Source: an uncultured Planctomycetales bacterium
GTDB taxonomy: Bacteria > Omnitrophota > Gorgyraeia > Aquiviventales > Aquiviventaceae
DNA length: 64,000 nt
Assembly (NCBI GenBank): GCA_964373175.1
Contig: CAYJTP010000001.1
Span: forward strand, 41,654-105,653
Reading direction: 5' to 3'
In this document: piece after piece, positions 2,255 to 62,427 of the stretch
Numbering within the stretch: position 1 is the first letter of the stretch
Layout: each line of letters begins with the position of its first letter
Position numbers and translations under genes: made by a program
The notes under the pieces: model-generated
Seen by the model: the letters and a program-made list of their open reading frames with translations, nothing else
Database searches by the model: none
Told to the model about the DNA's origin: nothing

Positions 2255-3322
2255 CTACCTCAACCCCAGCAGGCTTCGCAGCGACGCCTGGTGGTGGGTG
2301 GCCCATACCAGTGGCCCTGTCAGCTTCAGACGCATGAGCACATTGAGCATGACGAAGATGCCATGTTGGACAAACCCAGTTCGGGAGGCTTCGAGTTGTT
2401 GAAGCACCTGCTGAAACTCTTCGGCGCTGAGACGGTAATCCAGAATTTCAAAGAGCGTCTGAGCAGCAGGCCGTTTCGATGCCCTCGAGTCCTGGTTTCT
2501 ACAGTAGAGGGCCAGCTCGTAGGCAAGCGCCCAAAACAGATAGCGATTGACCGAGGACCTCCATCGACTGACCATCTGAGCGTGGGCCGGCCAGCGCGTC
2601 ACGTGGGCATCGCAATAGCGAGAGAGGCACTCCTCATAATCACGGGCCATCGACACGATGGTCCGTGCGCTTTGTGACTGACGAAGCTGCCGACAGCGCC
2701 AGAGCAGCCTGTCCACATGGCCGATCTGCCAGCGTTCGGCAATCTGGAACCACACGACAAAGTCTCCGAACCCGATGGGTCCTTGCTCATCAAACCGAAT
2801 GTCACCGAGAGCCGTGCGCCGGATCATGGCACCCGGAATGCCGATAGAGGATCGTCCAGAGCGCATTGTGCGCTCAATGTACTCCAACCCCGGTGTGACG
2901 GACGGGACGTCGCACTCCCTGACGCCAAGGCACTCCCCCGCGTCGCTGATCAACTCCCAGTCGGAGCACACCACCCCCACCTCGGGATGGTGAGAGAGAA
3001 ACGAGACGTACTCGCTGACGAGTCGAAGACTCCGCTCATCATGGTCGTGGAAGAAACAGATGAACTCCCCATGGCTTTCGTCGATGCAGAAATTATGATT
3101 GCGGTAGAGACCCTGATTGTGAGGATGGCGCACATATCGGATACGCGAATCCGCTAACGCCGCCTGACGGCAGACAGCCTCTGTCTCATCTGCTGAACCA
3201 TTATCACTGATCAGGATCTCGAGCGGAGCGTAGTCCTGGCCTTGGATACTCCTGAGGCCCTCGCGCAGTGCAGAGGCCCGATTGTATGTCGGCACACAGA
3301 TTGAGACGAGGGGCTCGCTCAT
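2255..3322 (-). CDS. glycosyltransferase family 2
   Basis: 355 aa. VSICVPTYNRASALREGLRSIQGQDY...ILISDNGSADET is the classic GT2 (GT-A) N-terminal signature with a DxD-like region. Confidence 0.8.
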   Translation of the reverse strand: MSEPLVSICVPTYNRASALREGLRSIQGQDYAPLEILISDNGSADETEAVCRQAALADSRIRYVRHPHNQGLYRNHNFCIDESHGEFICFFHDHDERSLRLVSEYVSFLSHHPEVGVVCSDWELISDAGECLGVRECDVPSVTPGLEYIERTMRSGRSSIGIPGAMIRRTALGDIRFDEQGPIGFGDFVVWFQIAERWQIGHVDRLLWRCRQLRQSQSARTIVSMARDYEECLSRYCDAHVTRWPAHAQMVSRWRSSVNRYLFWALAYELALYCRNQDSRASKRPAAQTLFEILDYRLSAEEFQQVLQQLEASRTGFVQHGIFVMLNVLMRLKLTGPLVWATHHQASLRSLLGLR

Positions 3323-54502: not shown

Positions 54503-55162
54503 TCAAAGAATCGCGCTCGCTGGCTTAGATGAAGAGGCGGCTTGCTTTCGCACGATTTCTTTGACCTCTTGGCCAGTCTGCTCGAAACGCCGGCCACAGC
54601 GTGCACAGCGTCCAGTGGCATGGGAGACTACCGGTGTAAACGGAAGCCGCTGCCCACACACGCACATCCATCCCTGAAGTCTCGCCGGGTTACCGTACAT
54701 CAGTGCAAACGCCGGCACATCGTGCGTGACCACCGCACCGGCTCCGATGAATGCCTGCTCCTCAATCGTCAGGCCGCAGACGATCGTCGCATTCGCGCCA
54801 ATGCTCGCTCCGCGCCGGACACGTGTTGGTATGTATCCCGTCGCCGGGTCCTTGGGGAACGCTGAGCGGGGATCCTTCACATTGGTAAAGACAGCCGAAG
54901 GACCGCAGAAGACGTCGTCCTCCAGGGTCACCCCCGCGTAGATCGACACGTTATTCTCGATCTTCACCCGGTTGCCAATACTGACCCCCTTACCGATCAA
55001 CACGTTTTGCCCTAGCCGGCAGTCACGACCGATGCGCGCACCGCCCATCACGTGCGAAAAATGCCACACGTGCGTCCCTGGTCCGATCACCGCGCCAAGA
55101 TCCACCACGGCCGTGGGATGAATCATAACCGCCTGCTTGGCAGATTTCAGAGCCTGACCCAT
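54503..55162 (-). CDS. wbpD: hexapeptide-repeat (left-handed beta-helix) sugar N-acetyltransferase, WbpD/PglD-like, with C-terminal zinc ribbon
   Basis: Repeated [LIV]G..x..x hexapeptides (IGRDCRLGQNVLIGKGVSIGNRVKIENNVSI). C-terminal CVCG...CARCG. Confidence 0.75.
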   Translation of the reverse strand: MGQALKSAKQAVMIHPTAVVDLGAVIGPGTHVWHFSHVMGGARIGRDCRLGQNVLIGKGVSIGNRVKIENNVSIYAGVTLEDDVFCGPSAVFTNVKDPRSAFPKDPATGYIPTRVRRGASIGANATIVCGLTIEEQAFIGAGAVVTHDVPAFALMYGNPARLQGWMCVCGQRLPFTPVVSHATGRCARCGRRFEQTGQEVKEIVRKQAASSSKPASAIL

Positions 55163-56214
55163 GCGCCTCCACGATCCATCGACTGCTGGGCCGCATCCAG
55201 CACCCGCAGCACCCGCAAGCCGCCCTCACCGTCGCTGAGCGGTTGCTTCCCTTGGCGGACACACTCCAAGAAGTGTTCACACTCAAGCTTCAGCGGCTCA
55301 GTCAAGTCGATGCGGGGAATCCGGATGTCACCGCTGCGCAGCGTGATCCACCAGTCACCGTACGAATCATAATCACGCATCGCCCCCTTATCGTAGATGC
55401 GCAGCTTCTCGGTCGGCTCCATGTCATCGAACGTCACCATCTTCTGGCTGCCTACCACGGTCACCTTGCGAATCTTGTGCGGATCGAGCCAACTCAGGTG
55501 GATGTGGGCGAGTGGCTCGTCTGAAAACTTCAGCGTCACGAAGACGACGTCCTCAACCTTCTCCTGGACGTAGCACGCGCCGTGCGCCGCGACAGCAACG
55601 GGCAGTTCCCCGAGCAGATCGAGAATCATCGAGACATCGTGAGAGCCAAGGCTCCACAGCACATTCTCATCTCTACGGATCTGCCCGAGGTTGAGCCGCT
55701 GCGTATAGATGTAGTGCACCGTCCCGAGCTCACCAGATTCCACCAAGCGCTTGAGCGCTAGAAAGGCGGGGTGGTATCGCAAGAGATGGCCAACCATCAG
55801 GCACCGGCATTGCACTTTGGCCAACTTGATACACTGCTCTGCATCAGCCAACAGGAGCGCAACGGGTTTTTCGATGAACACATGCTTGCCCGCCTCGAGT
55901 GCCTGCAGGCCAAACTGAGCATGGGTCACCGCTGGGGTCGCAATCACCACCGCCTCGATCGATTCGTCTGAAAAAATGGGGGCGGTGGTCTTGACATACC
56001 GAACCTTAGGAAATGCGCGCCGCATGGCGTCCAGCCGTTCGTCCAGGATGTCGCAGCAATAGACGAGTTCGGACCCGGGTAATTGGTGAAACTCCCGCAC
56101 GAGATTCTTGCCCCAGTCCCCACACCCAATCACCGCCAGGCGTACAGGCGCTGTTGTCTCGGCGCGATCTGCAGATCTGCGTGTGGTTCTTGGGGCGGCC
56201 GCACGCACAGTCAT
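55147..56214 (-). CDS. wbpB: Gfo/Idh/MocA oxidoreductase, WbpB-like UDP-N-acetylglucosaminuronate 3-dehydrogenase candidate
   Basis: [20 protein letters not shown] motif. Adjacent to the LbH acetyltransferase, as in WbpB-WbpD pairs. Start at the ATG in an ATGA overlap. Confidence 0.75.
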
Positions 56215-57167
56215 CGGACCACCGACGCAAGGGACTGGGCGAACCAGGCAATGCTGCGCTGGAGGCCGTCCGACAACGTGGTCTTCGGCTCCCACCCTTT
56301 GAGCGTTCTCCTGGCCACACTGATGTCAGGGCGACGCTGCTTCGGATCGTCCTGCGGGAGTGACCGGAATTCAATCCGGCTCTTGCTCTTCGTTCCCTGA
56401 ACGTGCTTGAGAATGGTTTCTGCGAGACGGAGGATGGTCCACTCCTCGGGGTTGCCAAGGTTCACTGGGTCGGGGTGTGAGATGGTCATAAGCTGGGTGA
56501 TGCCTTCGATCAAATCATCAATGTAGCAGAAGCTGCGGGTCTGGCTCCCGTCGCCAAAGACGGTCAGGGGCTCCCCGCGCAAAGCCTGCGTGATGAAGGT
56601 GGGGATGGCGCGGCCGTCGTCCATCCTCATCCGGGGTCCAAACGAATTGAAGATGCGAGCGATCCGTGTCTCGACGCCATGTTCGCGGTGATAGGCCATC
56701 GTGAGGGCTTCCGCGAACCGTTTGGCCTCATCGTAGACGCCGCGAGGCCCGACTGGGTTGACGTGGCCCCAGTAGGATTCGGGCTGGGGATGGACCTGCG
56801 GATCGCCGTAGACCTCCGAAGTTGACGCCAAGAGGAACTTGGCCTGCTTGGCCTTGGCGATCCCCAGGGCATTAAGGGTTCCAAGGGAGCCGACCTTGAG
56901 GGTTTGGATCGGGTACTTGAGGTAATCGTGTGGACTGGCGGGCGAGGCGAAGTGCAGGACGTAGTCGACAGGACCATCCGGCTCGTACGGTTTGCTGACG
57001 TCGTGTTGCACAAACGCGAATCGGGCGTGGGTCTTGAGGTTGGCGACGTTGTCCATCTTTCCCGTGATCAGGTTGTCCACGCAGAGCACCTCATGGCCGC
57101 CTTCGATCAGCCGGTCGCACAGGTGCGAGCCGATGAACCCTGCCCCGCCGGTGACGAGGATTCTCAT
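56211..57167 (-). CDS. UDP-glucuronate decarboxylase (UDP-xylose synthase) / extended-SDR NDP-sugar dehydratase family
   Basis: [29 protein letters not shown] (YxxxK), UXS/ArnA-C-terminal-like length and pattern. Confidence 0.8.
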
Positions 57168-57418
57168 GAAGCCAGCGGTCCTCCTTCAGCGGCTTCGAGG
57201 AACGGCTGCTCTAGCGTCACCGTGAAGTCCAGGAACCGATGCAGGAGCTTGATGCCCCGATGCTTGTTCGAGGTGCGCTTGATGAAGCCTTTGCGTTCCA
57301 GGGCGTTGAGGCGGTCGACGGCGGATTTGTACGAGGCGATCTGGCAGTTGGCTTGGATCTCGCGGATAAAGGGGGCGCGCTGGTTCTGCGCCAGATAGCG
57401 CTGGATATACTCCAGCAC
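57164..57418 (-). CDS. small LexA-N-terminal-domain-like winged-helix DNA-binding protein (putative transcriptional regulator)
   Basis: 84 aa. [45 protein letters not shown] closely follows the LexA DNA-binding-domain consensus (..PPSIREIA..LGL.S.S.V..HL.ALE.KGYI.R). No peptidase domain. Confidence 0.55.
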
Positions 57419-57506
57419 GGCCTGTTGTTTACTGGTAAGTTTGGTCAGTCCAGGGCCTTAAGCAGAGTAAAAATTACTATCAACCGGTGAGCAATTATTA
57501 ACATAC
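57419..57506 (-). promoter_or_regulatory. AT-rich intergenic region upstream of the LexA-like gene with inverted repeat AGTAA-N3-TTACT; candidate internal promoter/operator
   Basis: The only AT-rich stretch in the cluster. Minus-strand reading contains TTGATA and TA-rich hexamers compatible with a sigma70-like promoter. Confidence 0.35.
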
Positions 57507-58655
57507 TTAGGGAACCTTGTCAAACGCTTTCTGGGCCTTCGGGGCCCCCAGAATCTGCTGGATGTCCTCCACCACACGACGCAACTGGGCACTCGAAAGT
57601 TCTGGATAGAGGGGAAGCGCCAGGACCTCGGCAGCTGCGCGTTCGGCCACAGGGTATCGCTCTGGCCGGCTGCCCAGAAAGGCGAGGGCTGGCTGGTGTG
57701 GGAGGATAAGTGGATAGACCACCTGGACACCGATACCTTCCTGGGTTAACCCTTCGTAGAGCCTCTCCCGTTGGGAGCACCGGATCACATACAATGAAAA
57801 CACGTGCCAGCACTCAGGGCGTTCCTCTGGCAGGGTGAGCCACTCGGTTAAGCCAGTGCTGGTGAACAGCGCCCGATACGTCTGAGCATGTTGCCGCCTG
57901 GCACGGGTCCATGCCTCGAGGTGGGGGAGCTTCGCCCGCAAGATCGCTGCCTGGAGTTCATCTAAGCGACTGTTCTTCCCCGGCAGGACGTGCACGTACT
58001 TCTCTCGACTGCCATGGACCCGAAGCAGACGAAGGCGCTCGGCGAGGTCGGCATCGTGAGTCACGACCAGTCCCCCGTCACCGTACGCCCCAAGAGGCTT
58101 GCTCGGATAAAAGCTGAAGCAGCCAGCACGGCCAAACGACCCCACAGGCACACCGCGATACCGCGCGCCGAGCGCCTGGGCACAGTCCTCAATCACCGCA
58201 AGATGGTGCCGTGTGGCGAATTCCATGAGGGGGGCCATGTCGCATGGGTGGCCATACAGGTGGACGGGGAGCACAGCCTTGGTTCGAGGGGTCAGCTGGG
58301 CTTCCAGGTGAGAAGGGTCGAGCGTAAAGGTCAGCGGATCAATGTCCACAAAGACCGGGATAGCCCCCATGGTGACAATCGCTTCCGCCGTGGCAAAAAA
58401 CGAAAACGCACTCGTGATCACCTCATCGTTGGGACCGATCCCACAAGCCCGCAAGGACAGCTCCAGCGCATCGGTCCCTGAGGCAACGGCAACGGCGTGC
58501 GTGGTGCCACAGTAGGCAGCCAGTTCCTGCTCGAGCGCTTCGACTTCGGGTCCAAGGATGAACTGTCCCTTGGCGAACACGCGCTGAATTGCCGCATCGA
58601 TCGCAGGTTTGAGGCTGGCGTACTGCGCCTTCAAGTCCACTAAGGGAATCTTCAT
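57507..58655 (-). CDS. wbpE: DegT-family aminotransferase (WbpE-like UDP-2-acetamido-2-deoxy-3-oxo-glucuronate aminotransferase candidate)
   Basis: MKIPLVDLKAQY... and FSFYPSKPLGAYGDGG (PLP lysine), 382 aa. Confidence 0.8.
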   Translation of the reverse strand: MKIPLVDLKAQYASLKPAIDAAIQRVFAKGQFILGPEVEALEQELAAYCGTTHAVAVASGTDALELSLRACGIGPNDEVITSAFSFFATAEAIVTMGAIPVFVDIDPLTFTLDPSHLEAQLTPRTKAVLPVHLYGHPCDMAPLMEFATRHHLAVIEDCAQALGARYRGVPVGSFGRAGCFSFYPSKPLGAYGDGGLVVTHDADLAERLRLLRVHGSREKYVHVLPGKNSRLDELQAAILRAKLPHLEAWTRARRQHAQTYRALFTSTGLTEWLTLPEERPECWHVFSLYVIRCSQRERLYEGLTQEGIGVQVVYPLILPHQPALAFLGSRPERYPVAERAAAEVLALPLYPELSSAQLRRVVEDIQQILGAPKAQKAFDKVP

Positions 58656-62322: not shown

Positions 62323-62344
62323 GACGACTCACCACAGGGTTCAG

Positions 62345-62385
62345 GAAGGAAGCAGGATCCCTACCGTCTTGCAGAAGTGTTTATT
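62345..62385 (-). promoter_or_regulatory. candidate sigma70-type promoter for the glycan operon (TTGTGG-N18-TATAAT)
   Basis: Minus-strand TATAAT at 62352-62357 with a TTG-containing -35 box about 18 nt upstream, within the 105-nt gap between lptD and ugd. It is the only good -10 hexamer seen between genes. Confidence 0.35.
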
Positions 62386-62427
62386 ATAATGCAGCGTCCA
62401 CGAACCCACAAGGCCATTTCCCTGCTG

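Follow-up and report, generated by a model that had tools for sequence, protein, structure and literature searches.

The gene analysed here encodes a stand-alone winged helix of the LexA type. It is very probably preceded by a real internal promoter, and its upstream region carries an asymmetric box that recurs in front of orthologous genes and is almost absent from other sequence. We favor, at somewhat better than even chances, a regulator that represses its own expression by gating an internal promoter for itself and for the adjacent gene of a UDP-glucuronate decarboxylase (UXS), rather than a repressor of the SOS response.

The gene lies within 64 kb of DNA (hereafter the window) from a member of the Omnitrophota, a phylum represented in the data used here only by MAGs and metagenome contigs. 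A search of the literature on Omnitrophota and LexA returned nothing, and the papers found for the LexA DNA-binding domain (PF01726) do not treat stand-alone forms. The features of the region are collected in table 1.

Table 1. Features around the regulator gene, in positions of the window
Feature	Position	Strand	Remarks
Regulator gene, revised prediction	57164..57448	-	CTG start 57448..57446, TGA stop 57166..57164; 94 aa
Truncated ORF call	57164..57418	-	Internal GTG start, 84 aa; from the ORF listing and the public annotation (P0001)
Shine-Dalgarno-like AAGG	57456..57459	-	7 nt 5' of the CTG start; read from the sequence
Candidate box 1, AGTATGTTAATAATTGCT	57490..57507	-	Overlaps the -10 element; 24 bp upstream of box 2; PWM score 10.5 bits
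Candidate box 2, TTGATAGTAATTTTTACT	57466..57483	-	Spans about +6 to +23 relative to the start of transcription predicted near 57488; PWM score 17.3 bits
Predicted -35 element, TTGACA	57518..57523	-	Within the last codons of the DegT gene; TTGAC kept in orthologous loci
Predicted -10 element	57494..57500	-	TAATAA (57500..57495, 17-bp spacer) or AATAAT (57499..57494, 18-bp spacer)
UDP-glucuronate decarboxylase (UXS-type SDR)	56211..57167	-	ATG overlaps the regulator TGA (ATGA)
DegT/DnrJ-family sugar aminotransferase	57507..58655	-	PF01041, E 7e-119; stop TAA 57509..57507

Results

Domain and fold of the protein

A preliminary description of this DNA had taken the protein for a LexA N-terminal winged helix lacking the autopeptidase domain, and both statements hold. 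The regulator matches PF01726 with an E value of 4e-17 (62.1 bits against a cutoff of 23.7) over positions 2-65 of the 65 in the profile, it has no PF00717 match and no S24 peptidase domain, and it ends at residue 94. The full-length NCBIfam lexA model (TIGR00498) is covered only at positions 2-70 of 203, with a score of 61 bits against a cutoff of 111. Neither an Ala-Gly autocleavage site nor the Ser/Lys dyad is present in the regulator, and beyond the wing the chain continues as a variable tail in which no motif is conserved. The relatives P0121, P0125 and P0130 likewise score above the PF01726 threshold. LexA was the sole significant match in a PDB profile search, and the MarR and HxlR models of Pfam scored 12-13 bits, well under threshold (12.5 against a cutoff of 24.6 for MarR).

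The AF2 model agrees with these matches, showing a winged helix-turn-helix over residues 1-70 (pLDDT ~80-90; helices 6-22, 28-34 and 40-52, strands 56-58 and 66-68) followed by a variable, low-confidence tail at residues 76-94 that is predicted to be disordered. The nine best Foldseek matches of this model were all LexA chains, with an rmsd of about 1.2 Å (range 1.0-1.5 Å) and 35-37% identity, and its TM score against 1lea was 0.87. No helical dimer interface appears in the model, and no domain for dimerisation or ligand sensing can be recognised in the regulator. An input signal is not evident.

The invariant residues of the family cluster in helix 2, in the recognition helix (S39, Y40, K41, S42, D45, R46, L47, N48) and in the wing (H63, R64, I66). 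In Escherichia coli LexA, DNA is contacted through Ser39, Asn41, Ala42, Glu44 and Glu45 (PMC3091678). At these positions the regulator family reads S, K, S, V/I and D, four of the five being changed, which predicts a fixed DNA specificity different from that of the SOS box.

A predicted CTG start codon

The minus-strand ORF given in the preliminary description is present in the sequence, but its length of 84 residues results from a mis-called start codon, since homology and near-invariant residues extend 10 codons further upstream. Positions 2-65 of the PF01726 profile are covered only when these 10 codons 5' of the GTG are added, and the family alignment places the near-invariant T5, K7 and Q8 all upstream of that GTG. 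In the 84-aa call, helix 1 is thus five residues short at its start, and three near-invariant residues are missing. Between an in-frame TAA (57460..57458) and the T5/K7/Q8 motif, the CTG is the only start-like codon, and the regulator is almost certainly the 94-aa form that begins there. A Shine-Dalgarno-like tetramer is found at -17 to -5 in 35 of 44 orthologous loci, commonly as GGAG six nucleotides before the start. Many members of the family are truncated in the public annotation because gene callers ignore CTG starts, and their products are described there as "hypothetical" or, wrongly, as "repressor LexA".

A 19-codon upstream ORF runs from an ATG at 57504 to a TGA overlapping the CTG. 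It was treated as a chance occurrence because its ATG falls 5' of where transcription is predicted to start, and because conservation does not extend to its length (9 codons in locus L004 and 17 in L008).

A family of the Omnitrophota

We found the family almost only in Omnitrophota, with at least 48 loci, nearly all of the taxonomically labelled ones belonging to this phylum. The 48 members range from 73 to 118 aa, and the best match among GTDB representatives is 72% identical to the regulator. The next relatives are full-length LexA proteins: outside the clade, at 50% identity or less, all are 195-228 aa long and carry the G.SM motif. Within the family the isolated LexA-head domain is under strong purifying selection. 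Its conservation (57-72%, compared with 65-78% for UXS) is about that of the neighboring enzymes. Such enzyme-like conservation is high for a transcription factor; it counts against autorepression and could point to a protein partner.

Upstream region and predicted promoter

The upstream region had been singled out in the preliminary description as uniquely AT-rich, and it does have the lowest GC content of the whole window at all three sizes tested (0.33, 0.38 and 0.38 for 60, 88 and 100 nt, against a window mean of 0.593). The gap of 88 bp given for it derives from the mis-called start. With translation starting at the CTG, the non-coding gap (57449-57506) is 58 bp, with a GC content of 0.38.

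The promoter-like hexamers noted earlier in this region could also be confirmed, with 11 of 12 positions matching the sigma-70 consensus. Promoters of orthologous loci have TAAYAT, TAATTT or TAAAGT as -10 element at a 17-bp spacing. In 25 of 44 non-redundant loci the 140 nt preceding the orthologue contain a perfect TTGACN-N17-TAnnnT, compared with only eight matches in the rest of the ~700 kb of strand sequence from the same loci; the window's own TAATAA is one base short of this pattern. The proposal of an internal promoter is thus upheld by a near-consensus sequence that recurs upstream of the orthologues, and the promoter in front of the regulator gene is very probably real.

The leader was also inspected for RNA elements. 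A permissive Rfam search returned only a chance snoRNA match (18 bits, the gathering threshold being 47), and the 61-nt leader folds no better than shuffled sequences (z 0.77).

A conserved asymmetric box

An EM search of 44 non-redundant upstream regions yielded the motif AATAT(A/G)GTAAT(A/T)TTTC with 17.5 bits, shuffled sets reaching 8.3-9.7 bits. The box was found in 37 of the 44 regions, at or just after the -10 element and often twice, and was missing from the other seven, which counts against autorepression. At 13 bits or more, 39 matches lie within 120 nt upstream of a regulator gene, compared with nine elsewhere in 350 kb searched on both strands, three of these nine being the same sites read in reverse. 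Within the window no further site reaches 9 bits on either strand. When the window was left out of the PWM, box 2 (14.0 bits) and box 1 (12.8 bits) remained its top two sites on both strands, followed by one of 8.6 bits.

The position of the box relative to the promoter varies by class: it may lie inside the -10 element, follow a separate TAAAGT, or be accompanied by a second copy 23-25 bp downstream. Ten loci have two boxes, with a spacing of 23-25 bp in nine of them and 23-31 bp over all ten, and the second copies have no -35 element of their own. These arrangements indicate that the box is not just a -10 hexamer. It is also asymmetric, with G at position 7 of the PWM and A rather than C at the mirror position 10. 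Box 1 falls on the -10 hexamer itself in most loci, so that promoter function may explain part of its conservation; this counts against autorepression.

An inverted repeat of the form AGTAA-N3-TTACT had been proposed as an operator. The repeat, AGTAAAAATTACT, does exist at 57466-57478, within box 2, and is the only match in the window, none being found in 100 shuffles. Its role as an operator finds no support, as the symmetry is not conserved: the arms are complementary at five of five positions in only one of 46 family boxes, that of the window itself, and the commonest value is two of five. The LexA box of the cyanobacterial and Gram-positive type is AGTAC-N-GTACT (PMC3091678), to which the repeat is loosely similar.

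One orthologous locus (L014) has a second box-bearing promoter in front of a membrane glycosyltransferase-like gene directly after UXS, which fits a factor acting in trans. No further box target was found in the window or in ~475 kb of orthologous loci with flanks of 4-10 kb, and the regulon may consist only of the regulator's own promoter, which counts against the proposed reading. What we found is a candidate operator lying over the gene's own core promoter and almost absent elsewhere, as expected of an autoregulated winged-helix repressor.

Gene order

The regulator is surrounded by genes for sugar-nucleotide enzymes, not by DNA-repair genes. The product of the gene downstream matches the human UXS1 structures 4gll and 2b69 with an E value of 1e-111. 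Its orthologues, with 65-78% identity, directly follow the regulator in ~31 of the 40 loci with enough sequence, and in most loci the regulator stop and the UXS start codons overlap. A DegT orthologue lies upstream of the regulator in 13 tblastn-screened loci, and the whole order UGD, SDR, DegT, regulator, UXS is repeated in L086, L087, L168 and L169. The internal promoter had been suggested to govern ~15 kb of downstream DNA with the WbpB/D-like and ulosonic-acid modules. This extent finds no support, since gene content past the first downstream gene varies between loci and UXS is the only conserved downstream partner.

Discussion

The fold, the lack of an S24 domain, the conserved promoter, the box with its exclusive gene association, the UXS synteny and the CTG at the start were all computed directly. 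From them we propose a LexA-derived factor of 94 residues that kept the winged-helix head but not the S24 domain, which serves autoproteolysis and dimerisation. The 3' end of the DegT gene would harbor a strong promoter of the sigma-70 type, giving a transcript carrying the regulator and the translationally coupled UXS, possibly reaching further genes. The regulator would be the protein that recognizes the asymmetric box of ~12-15 bp (core AT(A/G)GTAAT(N)TTT), presumably binding as a monomer, with one box over the -10 element and the other 24 bp further downstream, in the stretch that is transcribed first. DNA binding by a lone winged helix is usually weak, and this, like the lack of an evident input signal, counts against the model. 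Occupancy of the boxes would repress the promoter that drives the regulator and could, as a roadblock, also hinder polymerases reading through from upstream. Such negative feedback would hold expression of the regulator and UXS at a set level, and weak initiation at CTG would keep the regulator scarce.

The box might instead be a lineage-specific strong promoter, with an extended -10 or discriminator and possibly tandem -10-like sequences, the winged helix acting elsewhere or through other contacts. The box is AT-rich and -10-like. About 20 loci have the T of TTGAC and the G of GTAAT 21-23 nt apart, which makes the TAAYAT or TAATTT within the box the -10 element at 17-bp spacing. We nevertheless regard this alternative as rather unlikely, given that TAAAGT promoters have the box after their -10 element and that ten loci carry the downstream copy lacking a -35 element. 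Moreover, the motif is almost missing from other promoters and sequence in ~475 kb of the same genomes, so that it is not a general consensus, and box and invariant recognition helix occur together. A LexA-like dimer switching the ~15-kb downstream operon from the palindrome AGTAA-N3-TTACT would account for the presence of that repeat, its uniqueness in the window and its loose resemblance to AGTAC-N-GTACT (PMC3091678). It is distinctly improbable, however, as the right arm is conserved in no family box other than the window's own, the PWM is asymmetric at positions 7 and 10, the regulator lacks the C-terminal domain through which LexA forms dimers, and the genes beyond UXS are not conserved.

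Two further readings concern what the protein does. It could serve UXS, or some other enzyme of the pathway, as a protein partner or chaperone, its winged-helix fold being incidental; the overlap of stop and start codons is typical of subunits made in a fixed ratio, sequence conservation is enzyme-like and a sensor domain is lacking. Against this, the invariant residues lie on the helix-turn-helix and the wing and not on another face, every significant match, in sequence or in structure, is to a DNA-binding LexA head, and the gene comes with a conserved DNA box of its own. The CTG start, in addition, implies a copy number far below that of UXS, unlike a stoichiometric partner, and we hold this reading to be very improbable. 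Least credible to us is an activator or promoter-specific initiation factor needed for the internal promoter: the box goes with a single type of promoter, and L014 has a second promoter carrying it, yet promoters of the TTGACA-17-TAATAT class are already near consensus and need no activator, and boxes at the -10 element and downstream of it, not 5' of the -35, are at classic repressor positions.

The autorepressor may be part of a wider picture that we put forward only tentatively. A LexA-derived single-domain factor would have passed from the SOS response to surface-glycan metabolism, acting as a monomer on asymmetric direct-repeat boxes that double as -10 elements in a promoter type reserved for it, with its level set by systematic initiation at the near-cognate CTG. 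Regulator and UXS would then form a conserved two-gene homeostat for the flux of UDP-xylose and UDP-glucuronate, possibly extended to a small glycan regulon as in L014.

The regulator family, with its predicted operator and promoter, offers an experimentally tractable regulatory handle in Omnitrophota. It would also single out UXS as the one step under specific control in surface-glycan clusters that otherwise vary, and it shows clearly how a LexA head can persist as an independent protein. We infer the function of the regulator computationally, and current understanding is not overturned by it.

Comparison with other regulators

Small factors encoded in or beside surface-glycan clusters and acting with a promoter-proximal cis-element are found in RfaH with ops and in UpxY/UpxZ of Bacteroides, a setting equal to that of the regulator. 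RfaH and UpxY/UpxZ differ from it in being NusG-like antiterminators that act on elongating polymerase, without homology to the regulator. Nothing observed here points to antitermination, and the leader has neither significant RNA structure nor an Rfam match. Repressors of the MarR, MepR and BlaI/MecI type share the winged-helix fold, with weaker Foldseek matches (E ~1e-2), and resemble the regulator in having an operator over their own -10 element and in being co-transcribed with the gene they control, both of which are predicted for the regulator. They differ in their obligate dimerisation, for which they have a helix bundle, and in the palindromic form of their operators.

The tandem proteins P0142, P0148 and P0153 consist of LexA heads without S24, like the regulator. 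With two heads per chain, 150-350 aa and 33-40% identity to the regulator, they form a separate family.

The LexA SOS repressor itself (E. coli LexA; TIGR00498; PF01726 plus PF00717) has the same N-terminal three-helix winged helix at 35-37% identity, including the LT.(K/R)Q..V that opens helix 1 and the RGI of the wing, and likely shares with the regulator the control of its own promoter. Unlike LexA, the regulator lacks the S24 peptidase and dimerisation domain, the Ala-Gly cleavage site and the Ser/Lys dyad, and it sits in a glycan gene cluster and not in an SOS context. Its predicted cis-element is an asymmetric direct repeat, in contrast to the palindromic SOS box of LexA. The structured part of the regulator corresponds in domain boundaries and fold to the N-terminal fragment left by LexA autocleavage (residues 1-84, 1lea). 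In LexA this fragment is an intermediate on the way to degradation and binds the operator more weakly, whereas in the regulator family the isolated head is the genetically encoded end product.

Protein fold and relatives

The small minus-strand ORF encodes a protein that is homologous to the LexA head and yet is not a LexA. Its sole Pfam-type match is PF01726 (LexA DNA-binding domain; 62.1 bits, cutoff 23.7). Against the NCBIfam lexA model TIGR00498 it scores 61 bits, below the cutoff of 111, and matches model positions 2-70 of 203. No S24 peptidase domain appeared among the Pfam and NCBIfam profile matches of the translation. We do not call the protein a LexA because it lacks the S24 domain, the cleavage site, the SOS box and an equivalog-level score.

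When a family profile was compared with all PDB sequences, LexA entries were the only significant matches. An AlphaFold2 model, with an alignment of 23 relatives as input, predicts the topology H6-22, H28-34, H40-52, E56-58, E66-68 (pLDDT ~80-90 for residues 1-60, down to 68 for 61-70) and a low-confidence tail at residues 76-94. The best nine Foldseek matches in the PDB were all LexA chains (rmsd 1.0-1.5 Å, 66-69 residues, 35-37% identity), with a TM-score of 0.87 to 1lea, the isolated LexA head. The stand-alone LexA head of the preliminary description is thus confirmed by profile and fold, and both sequence and structure matches lead to LexA rather than to a non-DNA-binding family.

Coordinates of the features discussed (positions in the window unless a locus is named)
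Feature	Position	Strand	Remarks
Small ORF as first called	57164..57418	minus	84 aa, GTG start; from ORF listing
Regulator gene as revised	57164..57448	minus	
Putative CTG start	57448..57446	minus	
DegT/DnrJ aminotransferase gene	57507..58655	minus	one side of small ORF
SDR gene (UXS)	56211..57167	minus	its ATG overlaps TGA of small ORF
WbpB-like GFO/IDH/MocA ORF as listed	55147-56295		GTG at 56295; 85-nt overlap with UXS
Non-coding gap after start correction	57449-57506		58 bp, GC 0.38
-35 hexamer TTGACA	57523..57518	minus	
Box 1	57507..57490	minus	12.8 bits
Box 2	57483..57466	minus	14.0 bits
AGTAA-N3-TTACT	57466-57478		AGTAAAAATTACT
19-codon uORF	57449-57504	minus	MLIIAHRLIVIFTLLKALD
Gap with second possible promoter	62323-62427	minus	105 bp; upstream of gene 61018..62322
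Extra box-bearing promoter	2987-3046 of locus L014		box AACACGGTAACATTTCCC, 14 bits

A word-indexed protein search returned 202 relatives, and the 120 of them that were listed have 78-159 aa, carry PF01726 alone and are labelled 'hypothetical' or 'repressor LexA' at their source. A scan of genomes from GTDB and metagenomes from JGI added 47 further loci with proteins 51-72% identical; Candidatus Omnitrophota MAGs account for 17 of the 20 labelled loci (those from GTDB genomes). Distant matches (at most 50% identity, many phyla) are, judging from their sequences, ordinary LexA: all 32 checked have 195-228 aa and the S24 'G.SM' motif. In an exhaustive search of 1.84 billion representatives, ~25 short ones (67-109 bits) stood clearly apart from the rest. 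The short LexA heads form a discrete clade, so far almost only from Omnitrophota, which derives from LexA and has lost its C-terminal domain. A separate family (proteins P0142, P0148 and P0153; 150-350 aa) has two tandem LexA_DNA_bind domains without S24, a 'covalent dimer' of LexA heads, and protein P0144 has two LexA heads plus S24.

Translation start

The length of 84 aa, taken over in the preliminary description, did not hold. Profile position 2 of PF01726 is reached only after ten codons are added 5' of the GTG, and T5, K7 and Q8, conserved in at least 90% of 23 aligned family members, all lie within this added 'LTKLTSKQQA'; in the 84-aa form, helix 1 would start one and a half turns late. 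The in-frame codons 5' of the GTG read TAA GGC CCT GGA CTG ACC AAA CTT ACC, where CTG is the sole start-like codon from the in-frame stop to the conserved motif, with AAGG 7 nt 5' of it. The true protein is therefore most probably 94 aa long, and the GTG start mis-called.

Among 48 orthologous loci, up to 24 have CTG as the homologous start codon, 12 have GTG, 7 ATG and 5 TTG, and 13 loci contain no ATG, GTG or TTG between the upstream stop and the conserved N-terminal motif. An SD-like tetramer, commonly GGAG six nt 5' of the start, is present in 35/44 loci. Since the neighbouring UXS genes mostly start with ATG, the weak start is specific to the regulator gene. The pattern concerns the window and loci in the series L004-L023 and L088-L113. 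With CTG at this position, many family members were probably truncated or mis-extended by gene callers, including the public 84-aa protein P0001.

Promoter and conserved box

The gap upstream of the regulator had been described as 88 bp long and uniquely AT-rich; the corrected start shortens it, while its composition is indeed the lowest in GC of the whole window (0.33, 0.38 and 0.38 at 60, 88 and 100 nt; mean 0.593). The largest gaps in the window measure 126, 105, 86, 79 and 58 bp, and only the last is AT-rich, the other minus-strand gaps of 79-126 bp having GC of 0.52-0.72. The promoter-like hexamers noticed there are real matches: TTGACA, an 18-bp spacer and AATAAT agree with the consensus at 11/12 positions, by far the best score of a consensus scan over 14 kb; TTGACA-17-TAATAA is an equally good reading. 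The -35 falls in the final codons of DegT. No terminator-like site was found in a scan between DegT and the small gene, so the promoter would supplement upstream read-through and not replace it. Perfect TTGACN-N17-TAnnnT lies at most 140 nt upstream in 25 loci and occurs 8 times in the remaining ~350 kb, both strands.

The uORF in the gap, whose TGA overlaps the CTG start (CTGA), is probably due to chance: transcription is predicted to start downstream of its ATG, and its length differs in loci L004 and L008. An RNA element in the leader was not supported either. A second possible promoter, TTGTGG-N17-TATAAT (-10 perfect, -35 weak, GC 0.52), lies elsewhere inside the one-strand gene array and was missed by the consensus scan.

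When the 130 nt preceding each corrected start were aligned, a promoter and a box recurred. Refined by EM on 44 non-redundant regions, the box motif reads AATAT(A/G)GTAAT(A/T)TTTC, with 17.5 bits against 8.3-9.7 in ten shuffled sets, and it is present in 37 of the 44. Matches of at least 13 bits fall within 120 nt upstream of the gene in 39 cases and elsewhere in nine, three of which are the same sites read on the reverse strand. A PWM trained without the window ranked boxes 1 and 2 as the top two window sites on both strands, the third reaching 8.6 bits. The box may lie inside the -10 (TTGACN-N12-aaATAG-TAAYAT, about 20 loci) or directly after a separate TAAAGT -10, and a second same-orientation copy follows 23-25 bp downstream in nine loci, including the window, and at 31 bp in one more. 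With so variable a placement, the box is unlikely to be just a -10 hexamer.

One further box-bearing promoter (TTGACC-N17-TAACAT, geometry unchanged) was found at locus L014, directly after UXS and 5' of a gene for a multi-pass membrane protein (~600 aa) with a GT2 gene behind it. No other extra box site turned up in ~475 kb of orthologous loci, and this one hints at a small regulon.

Genomic context

The minus strand carries all long ORFs of the window (176-63975); neighbouring ORFs mostly overlap or are less than 30 bp apart. An SDR orthologue (65-78% identity), a UDP-glucuronate decarboxylase by its match to human UXS1 structures (E 1e-111), lies immediately 3' of the regulator in about 31 of the 40 loci with enough sequence, usually overlapping its stop (ATGA or TGATG). 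Among the loci screened by tblastn, 13 have a DegT orthologue upstream. The window and loci L086, L087, L168 and L169 share the order nucleotide-sugar dehydrogenase - SDR epimerase - DegT - regulator - UXS, which adjoins lptD twice.

Beyond UXS the loci diverge: WbpB/D-like and Kdo-like genes in the window, MurJ and NeuB in one locus, PMT_2 and GT2 in another, a carbamoyltransferase in two. Such variation points to regulator plus UXS as the conserved unit, and control of the downstream ~15 kb as a whole, as previously suggested, is not sustained. The public call for the WbpB-like ORF on the near-identical contig L001 has 355 aa and shares only 4 nt with UXS, which makes an ATG near 56214 the probable real start.

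Proposed mode of action

Residues invariant in the family lie in helix 2, in the recognition helix (S39, Y40, K41, S42, D45, R46, L47 and N48) and in the wing (H63, R64 and I66). All 23 aligned members (alignment A1) have a cysteine, C35, at the end of helix 2 (GCQI), where LexA has Leu or Gly. Escherichia coli LexA contacts DNA through Ser39, Asn41, Ala42, Glu44 and Glu45 (PMC3091678); in this family those positions carry S, K, S, V/I and D. The DNA-binding surface thus appears to be maintained, with a specificity other than the SOS box.

The invariant reading head is paired with a dedicated conserved box, which lies at the -10 of the same gene and in the part transcribed first; negative autoregulation of an internal promoter would account for this most simply. 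The regulator would repress its own promoter, which would also drive UXS, and little repressor would be made from the weak CTG start. The 12-bp conserved core (AT-GTAAT-TTT) would suit one winged helix, its recognition helix entering the major groove and its wing the neighbouring AT-rich minor groove; we infer this fit, as well as monomeric binding, the direction of regulation and how far the transcript extends. No signal-sensing element is evident in the protein.

A rival reading takes the box for a special promoter and nothing more; its near absence from other promoters of these genomes and its varying position speak against that. Binding of a dimer to the inverted repeat AGTAA-N3-TTACT, the operator first proposed, fails: the repeat is present, single in the window and absent from 100 shuffles, but its right arm is not conserved (arm complementarity 5/5 in the window, 4/5 in two other loci, mode 2/5), and the protein has no dimerisation domain. 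The box itself is asymmetric, with G at position 7 and A rather than C at the mirror position. Translational coupling and high conservation would fit a partner protein of UXS; such a role would explain neither the invariant DNA-reading surface nor the dedicated box, and the CTG start implies sub-stoichiometric amounts. An activator is unlikely, as the promoters are near consensus and the boxes lie at or downstream of the -10.

We found no publication on a stand-alone LexA-head family in the literature. In our reading the protein is a LexA head, so far almost only from Omnitrophota, that would act as a factor in its own right, linked with UXS and with a conserved promoter and candidate operator. 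The evidence from comparison is unusually clean, and the CTG starts form an odd pattern, while the type of regulation is conventional: as a repressor of its own promoter, the protein would work like the small autoregulated winged-helix repressors.
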